From the NCBI GenBank assembly GCA_038046685.1, contig JBBSVT010000103.1, forward strand, positions 1 through 50,810: DNA of 50,810 bases. Direction: 5' to 3'. Shown one piece after another: positions 2,314 through 50,444 of this stretch. The number at the start of each line of letters is the position of its first letter. Position 1 is the stretch's first letter. Origin of the DNA: Nanobdellota archaeon (lineage in GTDB: Archaea > Nanobdellota > Nanobdellia > Woesearchaeales > GW2011-AR4). The notes beneath the pieces were generated by a model that was not told where the DNA came from, made no database searches, and saw only the letters and a list, made by a program, of their open reading frames with translations. The translations under genes and the position numbers were made by a program.

Positions 2314-2948
2314 TTTTGATTAAAATTATATTTTTGTTTTGACAACCTTGCTATCTCTTTCATTATCTTGTTTGTTACTTCCCTTAACATCTTTTTATTA
2401 ATCTTTTTATTGTAATATTCCGGAAAATATATTGGCTTTCCAATGTTCATAATGGCTCTTTTAAATTTTGGAATATAATCTCCTTTTGGCAGAATTTCAA
2501 AAGTGCCTATCAACCCGATTGGCAAAACAGGGGCTTTTGAAAAAAGAGTAAGCCTTGCAACTCCAGTTTTTGCTTTTTGCAATTTTCCTGTCAAGCTTCT
2601 TGTTCCTTCTGGATGAATTGCTATTATCTTGCCAGCCTTTAATGCCTGAATAGCCCATATCAATGCTTCTTTGCCTCCTTCTTCCCTGTCAAGAGGTACT
2701 GCACCTACATAAGTGTGCCAAACCTTTTTAAGAATGTTGTTAAAGTGCTCTTTCTTTGCAAGATGATGTATTTTCTTGTTGAGATAAGGAATCAAAGTAC
2801 ACATTATCACAAAATGGTCCATGTAGCTGGCATGATTTGCAGCTATGATAAAATGCCCATGTTTAGGGACATTTTCCAATCCATTAACTTTCTTAATCCA
2901 AAATCTGAATATTGTGGGGATTATTCTTTTTCCGATTGGATATACCAT
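2310..2948 (-). CDS. plsC: PlsC-family lysophospholipid acyltransferase (paralog 2)
   Basis: NHASYMD (HX4D) and HPEGTRS motifs; ATGA overlap with gpsA. Confidence 0.9.
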   Translation of the reverse strand: MVYPIGKRIIPTIFRFWIKKVNGLENVPKHGHFIIAANHASYMDHFVIMCTLIPYLNKKIHHLAKKEHFNNILKKVWHTYVGAVPLDREEGGKEALIWAIQALKAGKIIAIHPEGTRSLTGKLQKAKTGVARLTLFSKAPVLPIGLIGTFEILPKGDYIPKFKRAIMNIGKPIYFPEYYNKKINKKMLREVTNKIMKEIARLSKQKYNFNQK

Positions 2949-5262: not shown

Positions 5263-5428
5263 GTAGGAAAAGCTTGTTTAATATATTATGAAAAAAATTT
5301 CCTCCTTGGCGGTTCGACGGACAACTTTCCTCCTTGCTGAACTAAATTATAAAGTCGAAAAGCTTGTCCTACTCGCCAAAAATTTCTGCGGATTTTGATG
5401 TCTAATTGCTTAATCCTTGAAATTTTTG
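5263..5428. repeat. Two imperfect inverted-repeat structures upstream of the orphan cassette
   Basis: GTAGGAAAAGCTT (5263-5275) / AAGCTTGTCCTAC (5360-5372); CAAAAATTTC (5377-5386) / GAAATTTTTG (5419-5428) enclosing GGATT/AATCC. Confidence 0.55.
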
Positions 5429-5551
5429 TCTCACCGAACGCCACGGAGATTTTTTTCTTGAAGAAAAAGTAAAGGTTTAATCCTTGTTTGCCAAAATATT
5501 ACTCAGACGAATAACCAAAATTTGATATACTTTTATTAAAAAAGTCAATTT

Positions 5552-6193
5552 ATGCATCAAGAAAAATTTTATAGGCCAAAAAAGTTTGTTGGATTATCAT
5601 TAATTCTTTTAATTATACTAACAAATGTGATAACTTTTAATTGGTACACTAATCCTGAACATAGTAAAAGTAAATATTGCTTTTTTAGCAATTGTCTATT
5701 TCATTTCAAAGTAAACATTATTTTTGGTATAATCTTTATAATCATCACAATATTATGGAATAATACCATAGGTAAATGGCAACCTATCATAGAAATATTC
5801 AAAAATCAAGTTAGTTTTATTCCTCGAACTAAAGGTTCAAGCGAAATTACACTTTCAAATCAAGAATTGAAAAATATACAAATTATAAAAACAGGTATAC
5901 CCAAAATAATTGGTATAGAGTTTAAAGATATTGACAAAATTTCACAAGCAATGAGCGAAGCGACTACAAAAACTGATTTAATTTACAAGATTATACATTA
6001 TATATCATTTAAATTGAGAAAAATTCCAATTAAATTCTTACAGTTTAATGATAAAAAAGAAGATAAAATATACATCTTCAAAAATATTATGGAAATTAAT
6101 CATAAAAGAGGATATCATGTTTCTTTATGGAAAATATCCTATTCCAAACAATTTGATTCACTATATAATGATTTATCCAATTTAGTAAATTAA
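5552..6193 (+). CDS. Orphan membrane protein (two N-terminal TM segments)
   Basis: 213-aa ORF, very AT-rich, opposite strand to its neighbours, two hydrophobic stretches. Confidence 0.7.
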   Translation: MHQEKFYRPKKFVGLSLILLIILTNVITFNWYTNPEHSKSKYCFFSNCLFHFKVNIIFGIIFIIITILWNNTIGKWQPIIEIFKNQVSFIPRTKGSSEITLSNQELKNIQIIKTGIPKIIGIEFKDIDKISQAMSEATTKTDLIYKIIHYISFKLRKIPIKFLQFNDKKEDKIYIFKNIMEINHKRGYHVSLWKISYSKQFDSLYNDLSNLVN

Positions 6194-6344
6194 CTATTAT
6201 CTGACTTTGGTTTTTCGCCTGTATCACACCATCTTCCCCTACATAGCTCGGTTCGACAAACAAAAGTAAACCTCGTTTTTAGCTTTCTTCCTTTCGCATA
6301 AAGTGAGATTATATACGCATAGCCTTCGGAACTTTTCTTAGAAT

Positions 6345-6599
6345 TTATCTGTCATATATGCTGCCTCTGTGGCCTGCAACCCTAACAAATAGAACCTTAT
6401 TTTTGAAATCGATATCAATAAGCAACCTATAATCTCCAACCCTAAGCTTATAGAAATCCCTACCTTCATAATGCTCAAGATAATGGAAAGGATTTTCTTT
6501 TATCTCCTTGACTTTCAGAACAATTCTTGCCGATATATCATTCGGCAACTTGCGTAAATATTTCTTTAATTTAGGATCCCACTCAACAGAGTAACTCAT
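6345..6599 (-). CDS. relE: RelE/ParE-family type II toxin
   Basis: YSVEW...YKLRVGDYRLLIDID...GHR signature; ATGA overlap with the antitoxin. Confidence 0.9.
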   Translation of the reverse strand: MSYSVEWDPKLKKYLRKLPNDISARIVLKVKEIKENPFHYLEHYEGRDFYKLRVGDYRLLIDIDFKNKVLFVRVAGHRGSIYDR

Positions 6600-6799
6600 T
6601 GTAAGAATTCTTTTTCCATATCTTCTTGGCTGATGTACTCGGATCGAGGAGTTTTTCTAGCTTCTTCAAGTTGCCTTTTAGCTTCATTGCTAAGCTCAAA
6701 GTCCTCTGCCAGAGCGTGTTTTATAAACTTCATGTCCTTTTGAAGATCTTTCAACTCCTCGTGTATGGTCTTAAGTGATACAGATGTCATTTCATTCAC
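6596..6799 (-). CDS. Cognate antitoxin (archaeal RelB-like)
   Basis: Small acidic helical protein directly upstream of, and overlapping, relE; C-terminal EYISQEDMEKEF. Confidence 0.75.
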   Translation of the reverse strand: MNEMTSVSLKTIHEELKDLQKDMKFIKHALAEDFELSNEAKRQLEEARKTPRSEYISQEDMEKEFLQ

Positions 6800-42605: not shown

Positions 42606-42720
42606 GAGTTTTCTTAGCGTTTATTATTAAATTATTTCAAGATGCATTCAGGTTAAGGATACTGCAAATATGGAAGAGGTGATGATTAAATTTATAAATT
42701 AGGCTTTTTTCTTGCTTAAT

Positions 42721-43134
42721 ATGGAAGACTACAAGAAAATGCTCGAAGCGGTGAGAATGAACCTTCCAGAAGCTGTTTTCCTTAAAGAGAGGTTCGAGAT
42801 ACCTAAAGCCCTTGGGCATATTCAAGGCAATAGAACGATAATTAGTAATTTTCTCCAGATTGCCTCAAACTTGAGAAGGGAGGTTAACCATTTGCTTAAG
42901 TATGTTCTAAAGGAATTGGCTACCCCCGGCGAGATTAAAAAGAGCGGCGCTTTAATTCTTGGCACAAAAGTACCTGCTTCAAGGATAAACGAGAAGATTA
43001 GGCAGTATGCGCATGAATTTGTGCTTTGCCTTGAATGCGGCAAGCCCGACACAAAAATAGAAAAAGAAGGCGAATTAACCTACATGAAGTGCACTGCGTG
43101 CGGTGTAAAGAATTTCGTCAAGGCGAAGATTTAG
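42721..43134 (+). CDS. eif2b: Translation initiation factor 2 subunit beta
   Basis: ERFEIP, LKELATPG, C..CGKPDT...C..CG Zn finger. Confidence 0.95.
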   Translation: MEDYKKMLEAVRMNLPEAVFLKERFEIPKALGHIQGNRTIISNFLQIASNLRREVNHLLKYVLKELATPGEIKKSGALILGTKVPASRINEKIRQYAHEFVLCLECGKPDTKIEKEGELTYMKCTACGVKNFVKAKI

Positions 43135-43307
43135 CAATGTCCTTTTTTCTTTTGAAAATTTTGCTTTAACTTATAAATTTACTATTAAACGCAATTGAAA
43201 CTGAGTTTAATAGTTGTTCTACGCAATTATTACTCAGGGTCACTCTAAATTATTGATAGGGCAAGAAATCAATATATTTTTAAAGATGTGAATACTCTAT
43301 TAACCAA

Positions 43308-43868
43308 ATGAACCAAAAAAATATTTATCTCATAGTTACAATCTCTTTAATTCTTGTTATAGTAATAGGATATATAATTTTTTATAATCCTTATCCTAAA
43401 GAGATTGATGTCGAATATGGAGGTAATATTCCAAAAGGAACATTTAAGGCAGTTATAGGTGATGAATAAATATTTACCAATGGTCCTGATGTAGTAAGTG
43501 TTACCATTTATGAAAAATATGGAGTGATGAAAGACTTCTGCACATACTATGATTCCTCCAACGAGTATTTTTGCCCATTTAGATTAGGAATCAAAATCAG
43601 CGATTCTTCAGCAGAAAAACAAGCACAAATAACTTCTAATCTTGAAGTTATAAAAGAAGATGATTTGGAATATCTTTCAAATAATTTAATTTTGTATCTT
43701 AACGGCGAAAAACTTGACGAATTAAGAATTTCTGCTGAATTAAAAGGAATTGTAAATAAAGACCTTCAAATTTCTGGCTCTGGAAAAGGAAAATCAAAAA
43801 GAGATGCTGTTAATGATGCTAAGAAAAGACACGATAAATTAGTAAATATTTTTTTGGATATTAGATGA
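43308..43868 (+). pseudogene. Membrane-anchored protein resembling an archaeal SecD extracellular domain, with an in-frame stop
   Basis: ATG at 43308 encodes an N-terminal TM; TAA at 43467-43469; the frame continues into the ORF at 43524 (LYLNG..LDELRI...LKG...QISGSG.G...A..DA). Confidence 0.55.
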
Positions 43869-43996
43869 TTTCTTGCGCTTACTCTTATTCTTTTATTGTG
43901 TTCCGCACTTGATACGAGTGCCCCTTCCGTCATAACTTCCCTCGCCCCACTTCGTAGGCTCGGTGCGTAGAACAGGCATGCCGATGTTAAATACAA

Positions 43997-44145
43997 TAAT
44001 TTTGAGAGGTGAACGTAATTTGGGACAATTTTAACTTAATGTTTTAACTAAGAGGGGCTTCGCCTTTGATGAATTAAAATTGTCCCCTTAATCCTAGTTT
44101 CTAATTGCTCACTTTGTTCGCTTGATAAAATACCTCTCAAAATTA
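43997..44145. repeat. ~150-bp nested inverted repeat (long hairpin)
   Basis: 14-bp perfect arms 43997-44010/44132-44145; 13-bp perfect arms 44022-44034/44074-44086; apical GGGC-TTC-GCCT. Confidence 0.8.
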
Positions 44146-44224
44146 CTTTTCGGAACGCAATTTCCCAGAACTTGCGTAACTGGCGGAGAATATAACATAC
44201 GATCATGTATGTTAAGTTCAATAT

Positions 44225-47200
44225 TTATCCAAACCATCTGTTCAATCCTTCCTGCTTGTCTTTCTCTCTTCCAAAAACCCCTTCAACCCTATTTTTTGTT
44301 AACTCCAAAGTTTGTCTAAGATAGGCAGGAAGCCCATATTTCTCTGATAAGGAGATCGCCGGCTCTAAATATTTGATGATTGTGCCCTCTGAAACAGTGA
44401 ATATTAATCTGCTGTCGCATGCCAAACATCTTCCTGTTAAAGGTGGCCTGCGGTACTTTTCGGTGCATTTGCTGCACCTAAATTGCTGCATGGAAAATTT
44501 TCTTAAATTCCCCTTTATATCTCTTAATAAGTGTTTTTCTATAACCAATCTGGCAACATCCGCTGCATCTACAGCTCTTATTTTATCTGCTAGCTCCATT
44601 TGTCCTTTTAATTTGTCTTCCATTGAAGGTAGTGTCTTGTACGAAGAGCACTTAATACCCATGTTGATATTGGTCAGTGGATGTGTATAATGTATTGCCG
44701 AGTAGTCATTTTCAGAATTTAGTATATTTGCAAATCTTTGTATATTCACGTTCCACGGAAGCTCGTATTTTTGTGTTGATTCATAAAATTCTATTGGATA
44801 GTTTTTGACTACATCCAAATCAAACACCATATCATCAACTTCTGTTGGAACCAGTATTGAAGTTATAACTAAAGGTGCGTCTTGTGTTGCTCCTCGCGAA
44901 TTTGGAAGGAATTGTCTTGAGAAATTTAGAAGCGCGTCCATCAGTAAAGTAACCGATGCTTCATCTCCATCACAATCCCTTCTTGTTGCTGCATGAAATA
45001 AAGGATGGGCATACAATACCTGTGTTTTAGAAAATCCAATTATCCTGCCTACAATGCCGGCTGACGTATGCGGTGCCAATGCAACAACAAGGTGCCCCAC
45101 TAGGTCTTGTCCGGATTGCAAATTATAAAATTCTTTCAGGCCGTATAATGAAACTAGCAGCTCATCAATAAACCTGCTTAGATTATAAAGAATCTTGTCA
45201 GCGCCAGATTCAGGCGCATCTTCACATTTTGGTAAGATAATGTCTTGCGGATTCAATTCTAAGATTTGCTCCTCACCTGCCAATTCTGATCCGTGAATAT
45301 CTTTGGTATAGCCCAGTCTCCTCAATTCTTCCACTGAAGTTCCAATCTCTTTCGGATTGAAATGCGTGATTGGCAGCTGCGTCATATCATATCTAGTAGT
45401 GCCATCTCTGTTGACTGGCAGCTCATGTTTTGCCCTTAAGATTCCTTTTGCAGGGTGCTCCGGAACATGATTTTTGTTTGAGGTACCTCTAACACCTTTT
45501 ATCAGATCTGGGTATTGTTGCATGCCTAGTTTTTTTAATATTCTCTTAAAGTAATGGTTGATATCGATGTTCTGCAATTTATAGCTGTTTGTGTTTCCAT
45601 GTTTGCATTTTGTGTCTTCAGTTAGTCCGCATGAGCTGCAATGCCTCATTTTTTTTGTTTTATTGTCGCATTGTTCACATACACTTAGTATTGTCTCTTT
45701 TTTACAATGCTCACAAAAATATATCGGGAATTCTGCTGCTATATGCCCTGATTCCATTGCGTTTTGAAATGACCTTAATTTACCTCCCTGTTTCCCTATA
45801 GGAAATAGTGTATGTGGCTCGCCATCGAGCTTCCGCACTTTTGCCTTCTCCGGTCTACCCATTCTTGCACCGACAAAAATCCCTGATTTGTCCCTGATTT
45901 TTATCACTGAAAATAGATTTAATATGTCTAGAACATCCTCCGTCTGAGAATTTTTATATTGCTCGCAAAAATTCTTTTCGTCAAGTTTTAATAGAGAATT
46001 TAATATTTCTGCATCATCCCGTCCTATTATCACTGACTCATTATTAACATAAATATGCGGCACCCCAAGAAGCTCCAGGACTCTTTTACCCACTTCATCT
46101 TTTGGAAGAATAATCTTACTGATGTCACTTCCATTAAATTCTATTTTTGCCTTAAGGAACCAATCAACTAACACAAGAAATTCCTCCCTTGAAATAGTTT
46201 TCCAATGGTAAGTGAAATAAGGATGTAAGGGGACAGAAAGGGCTTTGCTTAATGTTATTGCTATTTTTGCTGTCGGTTTCTCAAAAAAAAAATTTTTGAC
46301 TGAGTTCTCTAGATTGACTTCCTCGAGGCCAGTTATTTCTGAGAGTTTGTGGAAGTCTAAAAAACCAAATCTGGCTACCATTTCTTTTTCAACTTCAAGC
46401 GACCACCATTCTTCACAATACCCAGCAGGTGGCAAAGTGTGTGCCCTGTTAAAGAAATCCCCATAACTGATTAGTATATCACCCAAAAATAAAATTTCCT
46501 TGGTAGATCCAACTACCTGTTTTGCTGTATATTCAGTATCCACTTTAATAACACTTCCATTATCCAATTTTACTATAGGTCCATCTATGGAGTCACATAC
46601 ACTCACAGCTGTTGCCTTCCCGGGCCTTTCTATCTTCAGTTGGGTGCCTATTGCAATGTATTTGTTAAGAATTATCATAGTAGCCGGATGTATTGCTGAT
46701 GCCGAATATCCTGACGTCCTACATCTTCCGTAACGCAAACGAAATCCTCCAACAGCAAGCGGGTGCGTCAGAACTGGTCTGCCGGCTACGAGGTCCTGAA
46801 TATATGTGTAAATTGGGGCTATTCCTTTTCTTACAATTTTTTCTTTTGCCTTCGTTTCCTTTTGCAATTGCGTGAACTCTTGCAAAAATAACCAATTCTC
46901 AAGACCAAACTCTTTGGCCCATTTTTTAAGTTGTGGCCATATTTTGGCAGCTTTTTGCGCCACACATTCCCCAAGAACTAAACACGGTCCGCTCCTTATC
47001 CCATTGGTTTCTATTCTTTCCAGGTCTTTATAATTAGAAACTTCTATATCTTCAGATGCATCACCATCAATCTGAACCGGTAAGTTGCTAACCAGAAACC
47101 TTATTTCTCTTTCTGTTGGCAAGTATTGAAGATTGGTGATTCTTTCATGATAATCATAAAGCTCTGTGACCATCCTCCTTATTTCCTTCTCTGAAGGATC

Positions 47201-47734
47201 ATAAGCGTCATATCCTAAATTTTTCCTTATGTAATCTGCGATAATAACGCTTAGGGCGCCTGCAGTTCCTCCAGCGCTTCTTATAGGCCCAGAATACATT
47301 AGAGAGAAATATTCTTTACCATCCAGCCTTTTTCCCAGTTTTAAGCCGACAAAACCTTCTAATGGTGATGACACAACACCAAGGGTTAAATAAGCCAAAC
47401 CCACCCTTATTCCTGTTTCAATCGCGTCTTTTTGTGTTTCGAAACTACAAAATTTTTGCTGGGTAGTTTCTATGGATATTTTAAGTGCAACTCTCCAATC
47501 CAGTTTTCCATAAATGCTTTCAAGTTCCTTTATTCTTTTCGGGATTCCTTTATGTAGTATTTGTGGGACTGCCACACTTATCAAGCCTTCTACTCGCTCT
47601 GTCATATTTTTGGCTAGAGGTATATTCACTTTTTCCTCAGGGTCATAACCTTTTGACCTTGCCAAATTTGCGACTTGATAAGAGGCGTCTGTCTTTGCAA
47701 GAATATCGTTCATGTAATTACCTTCATTTCTCAT
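44225..47734 (-). CDS. polC: DNA polymerase D large subunit (DP2)
   Basis: GPIRSAGGT, GGFRLRYGR, RMGRPEKA, CDGDE catalytic motif, C-terminal Zn finger; no intein. Confidence 0.97.
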   Translation of the reverse strand: MRNEGNYMNDILAKTDASYQVANLARSKGYDPEEKVNIPLAKNMTERVEGLISVAVPQILHKGIPKRIKELESIYGKLDWRVALKISIETTQQKFCSFETQKDAIETGIRVGLAYLTLGVVSSPLEGFVGLKLGKRLDGKEYFSLMYSGPIRSAGGTAGALSVIIADYIRKNLGYDAYDPSEKEIRRMVTELYDYHERITNLQYLPTEREIRFLVSNLPVQIDGDASEDIEVSNYKDLERIETNGIRSGPCLVLGECVAQKAAKIWPQLKKWAKEFGLENWLFLQEFTQLQKETKAKEKIVRKGIAPIYTYIQDLVAGRPVLTHPLAVGGFRLRYGRCRTSGYSASAIHPATMIILNKYIAIGTQLKIERPGKATAVSVCDSIDGPIVKLDNGSVIKVDTEYTAKQVVGSTKEILFLGDILISYGDFFNRAHTLPPAGYCEEWWSLEVEKEMVARFGFLDFHKLSEITGLEEVNLENSVKNFFFEKPTAKIAITLSKALSVPLHPYFTYHWKTISREEFLVLVDWFLKAKIEFNGSDISKIILPKDEVGKRVLELLGVPHIYVNNESVIIGRDDAEILNSLLKLDEKNFCEQYKNSQTEDVLDILNLFSVIKIRDKSGIFVGARMGRPEKAKVRKLDGEPHTLFPIGKQGGKLRSFQNAMESGHIAAEFPIYFCEHCKKETILSVCEQCDNKTKKMRHCSSCGLTEDTKCKHGNTNSYKLQNIDINHYFKRILKKLGMQQYPDLIKGVRGTSNKNHVPEHPAKGILRAKHELPVNRDGTTRYDMTQLPITHFNPKEIGTSVEELRRLGYTKDIHGSELAGEEQILELNPQDIILPKCEDAPESGADKILYNLSRFIDELLVSLYGLKEFYNLQSGQDLVGHLVVALAPHTSAGIVGRIIGFSKTQVLYAHPLFHAATRRDCDGDEASVTLLMDALLNFSRQFLPNSRGATQDAPLVITSILVPTEVDDMVFDLDVVKNYPIEFYESTQKYELPWNVNIQRFANILNSENDYSAIHYTHPLTNINMGIKCSSYKTLPSMEDKLKGQMELADKIRAVDAADVARLVIEKHLLRDIKGNLRKFSMQQFRCSKCTEKYRRPPLTGRCLACDSRLIFTVSEGTIIKYLEPAISLSEKYGLPAYLRQTLELTKNRVEGVFGREKDKQEGLNRWFG

Positions 47735-47735
47735 T

Positions 47736-49235
47736 TTACTGTCCAAATTTCAATATTTTTATATCTCTCGTCTGCAAATTCACTATTGGAACTCTGCTGG
47801 GTTCTGGATTATGTCCTACTTTCTCTTGAAAAATTGTTTTGCTCTGCCAACAGCTCCCGCATATCAATGTTGTATTGCGATAATTTGCCGTTGCGGTTTT
47901 ATGTATATGGCCGCTAAGGAAAAAGTCAGGGACAATTTCAATGGTTAACGGATCTTTTTTTGTATCTGGAATGTACAGTGTAGATAAATGTGAGGGTGCC
48001 AGATGCCTCCTTTTCAATAAAAACTTCATTATTAAATCTGCCCTGCTGTATCCTCCTTTGTTTCTTAATGTATCAACCTCTGCAACAAAATAATCAAAAG
48101 AATAGCCATGGTACATCAAAACATCAAACCCTAAAAAGTTGTTTGATGATTGGATATTAATTAAAGAGGGATTTGAGACCATAAGTACATTATTCAGCTC
48201 ATATAATGGCTTTGCAAAATTTTTTGATAATGGTGGCTGTGGTTCGGAAATACGCAAAGCGTCATGGTTTCCGGGGCAGATAATCAATGGTATGTGCTGC
48301 GGTATTTGTTTAATAAGATTTGCACATTCTTTATATTGTTGATAAATATCCTTTGTTGTTAGTTCCTTATCCTGTTCTGGGTAAATACCACATCCATCCA
48401 CCAAGTCTCCTGCTATGAATATATATTCTATATTTTTTGCTATATGTTTTTGTTGTTCATTTCCAAGGTCACCATTCACCCATTTAAGAAATTTCTCAAA
48501 ATCTTCAGGTAAAAATTTTGAGGAACCTACATGCAAGTCTGACAAAAATAATGCATATTTTTCTTGTTCTGATTTTTTCAGCTCTCTATTTGTCGGTGTA
48601 TCTGGCCAAAGAATGCTGTTTGCGAATATAAAATCACCCACATTTACTCCGACAACACCAATAACTTCATCCAACACTATATCCTTCGCATCATTAAATA
48701 AACTAGGCTTATTTTTATTTACCAGCACTTTTTTTTGTCCCGTCGGGTCTTCAAGAATTAAAAGCAAGTTGCCGTTTTTTGTTGTTTGTTTATTATTAAC
48801 CATCCCTATTATAGCCAAGTTTTCCTTTTCCTCTTTGTTGAATATTTTATTCATTGAAACTGTATTTTTCAGCTCCTGCCTTCCCTTCAAAATTTTTTCT
48901 ATTGATTTATACCTATTGTTAAAATAATCTACAAAGTCTTGCGGTTCTCTCTTCTTTGGTTCATCGTTGTAAGAATAAATTATTTTTATTTTAGGAGGCA
49001 GTTTTTGCTCTTTTTGTGTTGCCTCTTCCAGAATGTTTCTCGCATTGACCAGTTTGCTAATGTCGATATCGATGACGGGTGCATCATTATGCTTCTGTGA
49101 TTTTAGCGAGTCAAATATTTCAGAAAGTTGTTCGTGGTTATTAATCTTGCTTAATAGCTCTGAGCTTATTAAAACCTTGTTTTTTAAAAGAATGTCAACA
49201 AATTCGCGTTTTTTTTTAAATATTTCTTGTTGCAT
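47736..49235 (-). CDS. polB: DNA polymerase D small subunit (DP1, proofreading)
   Basis: OB fold (LEDPTG); SDLHVGS, GDLVDG, PGNHD, YHG, HLAP and GHIH phosphoesterase motifs. Confidence 0.96.
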   Translation of the reverse strand: MQQEIFKKKREFVDILLKNKVLISSELLSKINNHEQLSEIFDSLKSQKHNDAPVIDIDISKLVNARNILEEATQKEQKLPPKIKIIYSYNDEPKKREPQDFVDYFNNRYKSIEKILKGRQELKNTVSMNKIFNKEEKENLAIIGMVNNKQTTKNGNLLLILEDPTGQKKVLVNKNKPSLFNDAKDIVLDEVIGVVGVNVGDFIFANSILWPDTPTNRELKKSEQEKYALFLSDLHVGSSKFLPEDFEKFLKWVNGDLGNEQQKHIAKNIEYIFIAGDLVDGCGIYPEQDKELTTKDIYQQYKECANLIKQIPQHIPLIICPGNHDALRISEPQPPLSKNFAKPLYELNNVLMVSNPSLINIQSSNNFLGFDVLMYHGYSFDYFVAEVDTLRNKGGYSRADLIMKFLLKRRHLAPSHLSTLYIPDTKKDPLTIEIVPDFFLSGHIHKTATANYRNTTLICGSCWQSKTIFQEKVGHNPEPSRVPIVNLQTRDIKILKFGQ

Positions 49236-50444
49236 TTAAATACAGATACTCCTTTCCAGAATGTTTTTTACCCTTGGTAATGTTGACTGTGAGATTTCCA
49301 CCGATATGTTCCTTGTTCTTCCGTATCTTCCTTTTGATATCACTTTGGCATTTACAATTCCGAGCATATCGAATTCTGAGATTATATCAGAAACCCTTCT
49401 TTGTGTTAATACGCTTGTGTTTGTCTTGCTGCATAATGACCCGTATACCTCATACACTTCTCCAGTAAATATTGTGCTTCTTTTTTCAGACGATAAGGAA
49501 AGTATTGAGTAAAGCACAAGCTGGTACTGCTTAGGTTGTGTTGCAACCACATCAACTATCCTGTCCCTGTCTATTTTTTCTTCGGCTTCATCAATATCCG
49601 CAATAGTTATTTTTTTGGTATTTTTTCTGTCTGCAACCTCGCCAGCAACCCTCAATAGCTCAAGCGCCCTTCTAGCATCACCATGGTCGCGAGCAGCATA
49701 AGCTGCACATTTCTCTATAACCCCGTGCTCCAAGACATCTTTGTTGAATGCTAATTCTGCCCTCTGTTTTAAAATAGATTGAATCTGTAAGGCATTGTAG
49801 GGTGGAAAAACAATTTCCTCCTCAGAAAGGGAAGATTTTACTCTTGGGTCCAGATTGTCAACAAAAAGAACGTCGTTTGATATACCTATTATCGTCAACT
49901 GTTGTTCTGTGCCACCTTCATTAATCCTTGTTAGATTATAAAGCACATTGTCGCCAGTCTTACTAACCAGTTGGTCAATTTCATCTAATATAATTATATA
50001 ATTCTGCTTGTATTTGTTGATGGCTTTGAGAAAAGCCTTGTACACCTCTTCTGTTGGCAAACCTGTGGGGGGAATTGGTTTGCCCAATTCAGCTGCTAAT
50101 TGTGCAATTAATCTGTATTCTGTATCTGCGCTCCTCTTTAGTTTACAATTCACATATAATACCTTTAATGGTATTTCTTTCTTTTCTGCTACCTCCATTA
50201 GTTTTTTTGTTGTGTATTTGATGGTAAGGGTCTTCCCTGTTCCAGTTTTACCATACACAAAAAGATTGGATGGTTTATCTCCTTTTAAGGATGAGGAAAG
50301 TATATTGGCTATCTGTTTTGTTTGGTCTTCCCTGTGTAGGATTGTTTCGGGCGTATAGCCTGATTGAAGCATGCTTTTATCAAAAAAGAGGCTGTCTTTA
50401 CCGATAGATTCATCAAAAAACGCTTCTAATTCCTTTTCAGCCAT
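49236..50444 (-). CDS. cdc6: Orc1/Cdc6 replication initiator
   Basis: YGKTGTGKT, ILDEID, DPRVKSSL, GDARRAL, SKGRYGRT winged helix. ATG at 50444 preferred. Confidence 0.97.
   Translation of the reverse strand: MAEKELEAFFDESIGKDSLFFDKSMLQSGYTPETILHREDQTKQIANILSSSLKGDKPSNLFVYGKTGTGKTLTIKYTTKKLMEVAEKKEIPLKVLYVNCKLKRSADTEYRLIAQLAAELGKPIPPTGLPTEEVYKAFLKAINKYKQNYIIILDEIDQLVSKTGDNVLYNLTRINEGGTEQQLTIIGISNDVLFVDNLDPRVKSSLSEEEIVFPPYNALQIQSILKQRAELAFNKDVLEHGVIEKCAAYAARDHGDARRALELLRVAGEVADRKNTKKITIADIDEAEEKIDRDRIVDVVATQPKQYQLVLYSILSLSSEKRSTIFTGEVYEVYGSLCSKTNTSVLTQRRVSDIISEFDMLGIVNAKVISKGRYGRTRNISVEISQSTLPRVKNILERSICI

Follow-up and report, generated by a model that had tools for sequence, protein, structure and literature searches.

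A probable integron-like gene cassette with dif-like ends between two core genes of a woesearchaeal genome

Integrons are the textbook route by which prokaryotes capture and shuffle single genes, and they were thought to require a specialised integrase and attC hairpins. A folded single strand is used in the integration of the phage CTX. In the accessible part of PMC9668308 (Ghaly et al. 2022), archaeal integrons are reported in 75 of 6,718 genomes by the standard IntI and attC criteria. The dif site of bacteria and archaea reads 11-6-11 according to the accessible parts of PMC2958812 and PMC8371274, and the former describes it as the single-copy site at which archaeal XerA resolves dimers. 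Two kinds of mobile DNA are built on such sites, namely the dif modules (pdif) of Acinetobacter plasmids (PMC10132070, accessible part) and the integrative mobile elements exploiting Xer (IMEX), which include the CTX, VGJ and TLC phages and the gonococcal genetic island (PMC5357621, accessible part). Here we analyze contig JBBSVT010000103.1 of a Nanobdellota archaeon (assembly GCA_038046685.1), whose 50,810 nucleotides we refer to as the window (contig C103 of genome G000, which comprises 1.68 Mb in 119 contigs, with 36% G+C and 88% completeness). An original prediction, made from the letters alone, had pointed to two gene-bearing units with similar boundaries, cassettes 1 and 2. Comparison with related genomes and metagenomes leads us to propose that cassette 2 probably belongs to an integron-like system of Woesearchaeota as one of its small mobile gene cassettes; the system would operate with a Xer-type recombinase and dif-like sites.

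Cassette 2 had been predicted to lie among core genes, and it is indeed located between the gene for aIF2-beta and that for the large subunit of DNA polymerase D (PolD; Table 1). The DNA on its left, together with the start of the cassette (43155-43239), is a repeated element with around 80% identity to copies at position 5601 of contig C7 of the same genome and in several relatives. When aligned to the uninterrupted module on C7, this left flank corresponds to positions 26-109 and the right flank (43985-44032) to positions 87-130. The two flanks of cassette 2 therefore rebuild the uninterrupted module. A core of 18-20 nt, TGTT-N5-CAAT-WATT, is present at both ends of the cassette, and this duplication has the appearance of the attL/attR pattern that follows integration rather than of a target-site duplication. 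Since the left copy of the core holds the CTACG of the cassette and the right copy the AAATA of the module, the crossover would have occurred at or before GTT, which fits G/TT (the slash marks the predicted exchange) and a cassette spanning 43217-43986. The core is enriched in the source genome, with 10 occurrences compared to 1 in the control; a loose regular expression for the junction is not (121 and 137, respectively). The motif GAGTTTA-N6, originally described as part of the cassette, belongs instead to this attI-like target module.

Overall, we identified 10-12 related cassettes in the genus, the order and metagenomes, which share one layout and carry unrelated cargos (the layout was judged where enough upstream sequence existed). 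Their left end reads (G)TT-N4-GCAATTATTACTCA or (G)TT-N4-GCAATTATTACTC(A), and is followed by an arm of 10-16 nt that is private to the cassette, a TATA-like box and an open reading frame (ORF). Their right end is composed of the exact complement of the arm, T(C/G)CGTCATAACTTCCCTCGCTCCACTTCGTAGGCTCGG, TGCG-N3-AAC, a linker and again GTT, where the linker is either CAGCGA-like (6 nt) or made of an A, a GC-rich palindrome and 2-4 nt. An exact 19-mer probe of the 3' block matched 2 reference genomes and 9 low-GC metagenome contigs, in addition to contig C104 of the organism itself and a number of matches in high-GC sequence that are due to chance. The full layout, with perfect arms of 10-16 nt abutting both conserved blocks, was found in six of these probe finds and in L126, L132 and L122 from the order. 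The 13-mer GCAATTATTACTC occurs at 37 places in 34 out of 401 genomes, a tally that includes the unpublished genome G415, compared to 8 for the reversed control. Three of 29 loci with this 13-mer have the full architecture (L126, L132 and L122, which come from other families of the order) and one has a left junction alone; the remaining ones, many of which lie in apparently coding sequence, look like chance matches. A 15-mer pattern with two mismatches matched the 43 genus genomes about as often as its reversed control, and only exact or one-mismatch matches were used. No match to the 3' block was detected in the viral contigs that were scanned. The cargos include small membrane proteins and lie on the opposite strand in 3 of the 12 cassettes. 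Pfam returned nothing for nine of ten cargo pieces, and one weak NTP-transferase (nucleotidyltransferase) match below the cut-off for the tenth. Cargo proteins that are closely similar, as judged by eye, occur within different flanks in L099 and L109.

The ends of each cassette match one another at two levels, of which the inner, absent from the original prediction, shows the stronger covariation. When one mismatch is allowed, the inner arms of a cassette form helices of 12, 18, 15, 12, 16, 16, 14, 14, 13, 10 (cassette 2), 12 (cassette 1) and 7 (L096) nt, which corresponds to 12-18 nt in 10 of 12 cassettes. Arms taken from different cassettes mostly pair over 5-9 nt (mean 7.5 over all), with the exception of one arm-sharing group (L099, L109, L110 and L126), and shuffled arms over 6.6±1.2 nt (maximum 12 in 2,400 shuffles). 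The arms comprise at least eight different sequences, each with a match in its own partner. At the outer level, we compared the left 10-mer of ten cassettes with the reverse complement of their own right 10-mer, and counted 10, 8, 7, 8, 9, 8, 10, 9, 9 and 8 identical positions (L122, L126 and L132 were omitted, as their right arms could not be extracted by rule). The summed identity of 86 out of 100 is higher than that of permuted pairs (73.0±3.2), and only 23 of 50,000 permutations reach it, which shows that the two ends of a cassette travel together. For example, the three cassettes with the left end CTAC (cassette 2, L105 and L109) all have the right end GTAG, despite differing flanks and cargos.

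The significance of the matched ends derives from this family, whose inner arms pair within the cassette and whose outer ends fit their own partner. Within the window, the motifs of the original prediction are where it had placed them (GAGTTTA at 43203-43209, GTTCTACGCA at 43216-43225, TATTACTCAG at 43228-43237, CTTCCC at 43938-43943 and GCTCGGT at 43958-43964), TGCGTAGAACA (43964-43974) is the perfect reverse complement of TGTTCTACGCA (43215-43225), and each left end matches its own far end, at 10 of 10 positions in cassette 2 and 8 of 10 in cassette 1. Taken alone, the 11-bp inverted repeat is unremarkable and constitutes weak evidence, because the window contains 72 perfect 11-mer inverted pairs spaced 300-1500 bp, compared to 48.5±10.2 in 30 first-order Markov resamples. 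Similarly, TATTACTCAG occurs 4 times in the 1.68-Mb genome, which is about the number estimated from base composition. The claim that the two cassettes share boundary motifs is borne out by a shuffle-controlled alignment for the 5' flanks (score 29 versus 13.6±2.2, reached by none of 1,000 shuffles), but not for the 3' flanks, whose similarity is not significant alone (15 versus 13.0±2.3, reached by 194 of 1,000).

The cargo is exchanged at both sites of the window. The aIF2-beta and PolD genes are adjacent in 21 relatives of the genus, and in 22 closed loci they are separated by 18 to 1359 bp, with unrelated genes on either strand (8 further loci ended before PolD). At the site of cassette 1, a left flank ending in GGTTTAA is common to four relatives; L012, L015 and L017 also keep the right flank TAAACCGATTTTTTAGC, yet have other genes in between. 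The inserts of relatives at this site have perfect inverted arms of 15 nt of their own. Such swaps, which the original prediction had proposed to look for in related genomes, add to the rebuilt module, the shared architecture and the outer and inner pairs in supporting the original idea of a unit that circularises or folds on itself.

The source genome encodes one full tyrosine recombinase (on contig C91) and one fragment (on C13). The C91 protein is closest to archaeal XerA, and aligns in one stretch with that of P. abyssi (4a8e, E-value 2.6e-41). Its relatives in the genus fall into two groups of identity, 43-51% and 39-43%. In 8 of the 15 loci of the first group (L145-148, L150, L151, L153 and L156), the module abuts the start of the Xer-like gene and is oriented away from it. 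Contig ends truncate at least two of the remaining seven loci. No module was found beside the gene in the 14 loci of the second group. Cassettes follow the module in the Xer-adjacent loci, and in L146 the first of them is an orthologue of cassette 1 (cargo 33% identical, E-value 3e-23), with arms GGGACACACAATTC/GAATTGTGTGTCCC and outer ends GTTTTCC.../...GGAAAAC. In the source genome, the C91 contig ends around 60 nt beyond a diverged copy of the module next to the recombinase gene. An attI-like start of an array beside a divergent recombinase is thus seen in eight loci of relatives, whereas in the window the module follows aIF2-beta instead. The linked recombinase forms a separate paralogue group.

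The arms at the cassette junctions resemble dif. In 5 of 13 junctions (C104, L093, L099, L107 and L110), the arm at the right end, GGTGCGCATAA, is identical to the XerC arm of E. coli dif at 11 of 11 positions, and the corresponding arm of cassette 2, GGTGCGTAGAA, matches it at 9 of 11 positions. The next arm, CGATGTTAAAT, shares 9 of 11 positions with the XerD arm. For these comparisons, the E. coli sequence was taken from PMC2731167 and its division into C arm, spacer and D arm from the accessible part of PMC10132070. On this basis, the junction arms are recognisable as predicted Xer binding sites. The metagenomic junctions L093, L107, L108 and L109 read 11-6-11, with the centre CAGCGA or CAGCGG. 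Junctions also conform to the core site GTTRRRY with a putative G/TT crossover (GTTAAAT, GTTAGGC, GTTAAGT and GTTAAAC), and the left end of L109 starts at TT after a foreign base. The folding of the left junction (z -3.3) suggests a second reading of the core, in which the arms TAATAGTTG / CAATTATTA enclose TTCTACG. The targets are copies of a repeated module, and not the chromosome's own dif used by the housekeeping Xer.

The contiguous right junction (43921-43996) does not fold better than shuffled sequences on either strand (z 0.18 and 0.39) and is therefore not an attC-like hairpin. Moreover, R'' to R' spans around 26-32 nt, compared to the contiguous imperfect inverted repeat of 55-141 bp (R''-L''...L'-R') that folds as a hairpin at the 3' end of the cassette and defines attC. 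When the right and left cassette ends were joined by script, with a crude choice of linker, the folding of the resulting circle junctions reached z -3.3 to -6.6 for 6 of 10 cassettes, with the private arms as basal stem, then the inner pairs, and the outer arms as apical stem.

According to the model that we propose, each cassette would consist of one gene with an apparent promoter of its own, with one half of a recombination site at each end. The left half-site would be composed of TT-N4-GCAAT, a short conserved block and a private arm, and the right one of the complementary private arm, a conserved block of around 40 nt, a dif-like arm (GGTGCG.A.AA) ending in AAC and a short linker. A circular intermediate would join the halves into one dif-like core flanked by a long imperfect hairpin, where the private arms could lend stability to a folded single strand or to a cruciform. 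The cassette would then integrate at G/TT into the repeated module of around 90 nt by site-specific recombination, with the Xer-like paralogue as the candidate catalyst. The module beside the XerA-like gene of relatives would play the role of attI; an orphan copy between aIF2-beta and PolD holds cassette 2 and, after it, a cargo-less unit.

Such a system would have features in common with each of those described. Like integrons, it has single-gene cassettes with a presumed G/TT crossover and a left end complementary to its own right end, arrays that in relatives begin from an att module adjoining a tyrosine recombinase gene of divergent orientation, and solo copies elsewhere that resemble clusters of attC sites lacking integrases (CALIN). 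In contrast to integrons, the recombinase looks XerA-like; the hairpin is not contiguous as in attC, but has its halves at opposite ends of the cassette with the gene in between; and the cassettes seem to bear their own promoters, occur in both orientations and have dif-like junction arms. The dif modules of Acinetobacter are likewise small gene modules (among them toxin-antitoxin genes and genes of unknown function) with nearly the same left arm (GGTGCGCATAA); they are bounded by Xer-type 11-6-11 sites and thought to move via the host Xer recombinases. However, they are plasmid-borne, their sites are for the XerC/XerD heterodimer and alternate in orientation, and the accessible part of PMC10132070 describes neither private hairpin arms or conserved accessory blocks nor a dedicated recombinase paralogue by an att module. 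IMEX share the integration of a circular element with a dif-like site at a dif-like chromosomal site, which leaves two hybrid flanking sites, but they are kilobases long and use a single chromosomal dif (PMC5357621, accessible part), whereas here cassettes of 0.3-1 kb use a repeated module, several per genome. As for archaeal XerA/dif, the candidate recombinase is closest to the P. abyssi protein and the inverted arms of the sites are 11 bp long and end in ...ATAA / TTA...; however, the sites are multi-copy, bound genes and have many centres of 9-11 nt, unlike the single-copy 11-6-11 dif (PMC2958812, accessible part; PDB 4a8e). We found no description of this cassette system in the literature on archaeal integrons, XerA/dif, dif modules and Woesearchaeota mobile elements. 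Searches for IMEX combined with XerA returned nothing on archaeal elements, and a 2021 review of archaeal tyrosine recombinases does not contain the word IMEX.

The same observations can be read in other ways. The paired ends could act in RNA rather than in DNA recombination, by forming a long-range helix in the transcript for the stabilisation, processing or circularisation of the mRNA. The covarying arms do flank an ORF, and the TATA-like box at 43205-43213 would put the start of transcription near 43235, just before the 5' arm. However, the outer arm at 43216-25 lies upstream of this predicted start, and all cassettes contain an additional TATA-like box in the stretch from the 5' arm to the ATG, as well as a T-run before the 3' arm, so that the main mRNA would lack both arms. 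Given also the reversed cargos of 3 of the 12 cassettes, the lack of any Rfam family match, and a module insertion and a link to the recombinase gene that would be left unexplained, we consider an RNA element unlikely. A non-autonomous transposon with terminal inverted repeats (similar to miniature inverted-repeat transposable elements) and a passenger gene, moved by a transposase encoded elsewhere, would account for the inverted ends of 10-11 bp with their further inverted arms and for copies scattered in intergenic DNA. This explanation is quite unlikely, as there is no target-site duplication but a target-homologous core of 18-20 nt at both ends, as in attL/attR, the inner arms vary between cassettes and are ill-suited to be the binding site of a transposase, and a tyrosine recombinase gene is associated with the target module.

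A canonical integron cassette with IntI and attC, of the type described for Archaea in the accessible part of PMC9668308, would explain the GTT/AAC ends with the left end complementary to its own right end, the many junctions that fit GTTRRRY and the arrays adjoining a divergent tyrosine recombinase gene. We regard it as very unlikely. The right junction does not fold, and the left end of the cassette holds at least 30 nt of conserved sequence and one half of the hairpin, whereas an attC is confined to the 3' end. The recombinase does not reach the integrase cut-offs (184 versus 265 for TIGR02249 and 130 versus 435 for PRK15417) and aligns with IntI4 (2a3v) in two stretches only, and the cassettes apparently have their own promoters and some are reversed. 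The scores give no sign of the extra domain specific to IntI, although the insertion was not mapped residue by residue. Finally, there may be no mobility at all but a reuse of promoter and 3' regulatory modules by lineage-specific small genes, with the 11-bp match due to chance. In agreement with this, 11-bp inverted pairs are common in the window and the 5' module precedes other genes without the 3' block, and vice versa. However, in 10 of 12 cassettes the private arms lie exactly against both blocks, the flanks rebuild the uninterrupted module and orthologous cassettes occur in different contexts, which makes this the least likely explanation and a highly improbable one. Two further candidates were rejected: a promoter with a minus-strand small RNA gene, whose right-end 'promoter' is an inverted arm of the site, and a bulge-helix-bulge intron, whose geometry does not fit.

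Several observations weigh against a mobile cassette of the Xer type. The recombinase falls short not only of the integron-integrase models but also of the curated cut-off for XerA_Arch (NF040815, 207 bits versus 220). Related cassettes share their ends by descent, and the permutation test of the outer arms therefore overstates their independence. Cassette 2 is a weak member of the family: its inner arms have a mismatch and pair at 9 of 10 positions, its circle junction folds at z -1.6 only and its junction reads 11-9-11; other centres measure 9-11 nt, and the linker ranges from 0 to around 14 nt among junctions. The family is sparse, with 1-3 copies of the cassette-2 3' block per genome. A search for a single-copy chromosomal dif in the source genome, with up to two mismatches in the left arm, gave 228 matches compared to 150 in the control and no clear 11-6-11 site. 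No circle, joint or empty site was seen in the contigs of four DNA sequencing runs, although assembled contigs drop rare forms. No RNA run is listed as holding this contig. With these points taken into account, we still favour a mobile cassette. We are evenly divided on the wider proposal that DPANN archaea have a form of cassette capture parallel to integrons, based on a Xer paralogue and dif-like cores, with private hairpin halves of the site that are split by a cut near the tip upon insertion, and that the cassettes have spread to orphan att modules among essential genes. If it is true, the capture of gene cassettes arose more than once in evolution, or such a Xer/dif system gave rise to integrons. 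It would also explain in part why the small-gene content of ultra-small archaea with reduced genomes is hypervariable, and would provide a simple and testable recombination system, made of one recombinase and around 100 nt of site. In addition, it gives annotators a means to locate cassette boundaries that are probably overlooked by the standard integron finders.

Table 1. Positions of cassettes 1 and 2, of their parts and of the neighbouring features in the window.
Feature	Position	Strand	Basis or remark
aIF2-beta gene, left core-gene flank	42712-43134	+	ORF; 78-92% identical in 33 of 40 other genus genomes
Target module (attI-like, about 90 nt, repeated), proximal part	43155-43216	+	about 80% identical copies at C7:5601 and in relatives
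TATA-like GTTTAATAG in proximal target module	43205-43213	+	sequence
Outer left arm (R'-like) GTTCTACGCA	43216-43225	+	perfect complement of 43964-43973
Putative left crossover, G/TT	43216/43217	+	cassette conservation starts at (G)TT; L109 has A for G
Cassette 2, 770 bp	43217-43986	+	bounds from putative G/TT crossovers
Conserved 5' block ATTATTACTCA	43226-43236	+	also in L093, L098, L099, L105, L109, L110, L126, L132, L122
Private inner 5' arm AGGGTCACTC	43236-43245	+	pairs with 43916-43925 at 9 of 10 positions, one mismatch
Cargo, 186-codon frame with N-terminal hydrophobic stretch	43308-43868	+	two same-frame ORFs
Private inner 3' arm GAGTGCCCCT	43916-43925	+	complement of 43236-43245
Conserved 3' block TCCGTCATAACTTCCCTCGC.CCACTTCGTAGGCTCGG	43926-43963	+	89-93% identical in G011, G022, G037; also in 9 low-GC metagenome contigs
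Outer right arm (R''-like) TGCGTAGAAC plus A at 43974	43962-43974	+	contains dif-like GGTGCGTAGAA at 43962-43972
Linker: palindrome GGCATGCC (43975-43982) and GATG	43975-43986	+	putative right crossover, G/TT at 43986/43987
Target module, distal part, starting with second core copy TGTTAAATACAATAATTTT	43985-44032	+	aligns to uninterrupted C7 module positions 87-130
Second, cargo-less cassette-like unit	43987-44211	+	arms 44022-44034 and 44074-44086, enclosing about 40 nt
Second unit, 3' block and junction	block 44077-44197; ATATAAC-A-TACGATCATGTA-TGTTAAGTTCAAT at 44190-44222	+	repeated block
DNA polymerase D large subunit gene, right core-gene flank	44225-47746	-	ORF; syntenic in 21 relatives
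Cassette 1, divergent member	5486-6261	+	R' 5486-5495; TATTACTCAG 5497-5506; R'' 6252-6261
Cassette 1 interior	inner arms 5508-5519 and 6206-6217; cargo 5552-6193	+	arm pairing

The cargo of cassette 2 had been described as a membrane-protein gene on the plus strand. A small plus-strand protein with an N-terminal hydrophobic stretch is indeed encoded, but its frame is broken by a single in-frame TAA (43467-43469) into parts of 53 and 132 codons, and it has no Pfam match. The TAA is probably a fixed nonsense mutation, as no variant letter occurs at the stop in contigs of four sequencing runs. This copy of the cassette looks solo, and the stop and the mismatched inner arm suggest that it is decaying. 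A weak match to a C/D-box small nucleolar RNA (snoU36a, E-value 0.93) at 43457-43537 on the plus strand spans the stop, with a spacing of the boxes unlike that of archaeal small RNAs. At the spot of the linker, relatives have GC-rich palindromes of differing sequence (GCGATCGC, TGCGCGCA, GCGGCCGC) or the 6-nt CAGCGA form. Those that follow AAC in cassette 2, L099, L110, L096 and C104 (GGCATGCC, GCGGCCGC, TGCGCGCA and GCGATCGC) are 6-8 bp long and stand within an AT-rich genome.

The cargo-less unit that follows cassette 2 belongs to another, more abundant family, with around 10 copies of its 3' block in the source genome and many in relatives. Copies of this block each end in ...TAAC-A-palindrome-GTT. 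A further core, TGTTAAGTTCAAT (from 44210), abuts the stop of PolD. On the metagenome contig L101, which shows no synteny with PolD, the second unit carries a glyoxalase-like cargo (named from its sequence) between the arms.

In the window as a whole, no tRNA genes were found, and an Rfam scan at the gathering threshold returned nothing but a borderline match to the Histone3 3' untranslated region stem-loop (49998-50042, minus strand, 34.4 bits versus a gathering score of 34), which in an archaeon is probably a chance hairpin. Permissive Rfam scans of both cassette regions and gathering-threshold scans of 18 related loci gave nothing relevant. Upstream of cassette 1, a non-coding stretch of around 200 nt (5291-5488) is 87-93% identical in at least six genus genomes, a much higher identity than that of the adjacent DNA. 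Its end is GGTTTAAT-NNTTG-TT, the point at which variable cassettes start; the stretch has no Rfam match and may be a second att-bearing platform or an RNA gene. To the right of cassette 1 (6345-6799, minus strand), an ORF for a RelE/ParE-like toxin (84 aa), named by eye, is accompanied by a small ORF (67 aa) upstream of it; pairs of toxin and antitoxin are a typical cargo of cassettes. On contig C59 of the source genome (around 2340-2431, minus strand), a partial module precedes ATTAAATCAATTATTACTCGGGG and a segment of the 3' block in inverted orientation. This arrangement lies ahead of a gene for a Cys-rich repeat protein, and the same order is found after the Xer-linked module in L145.

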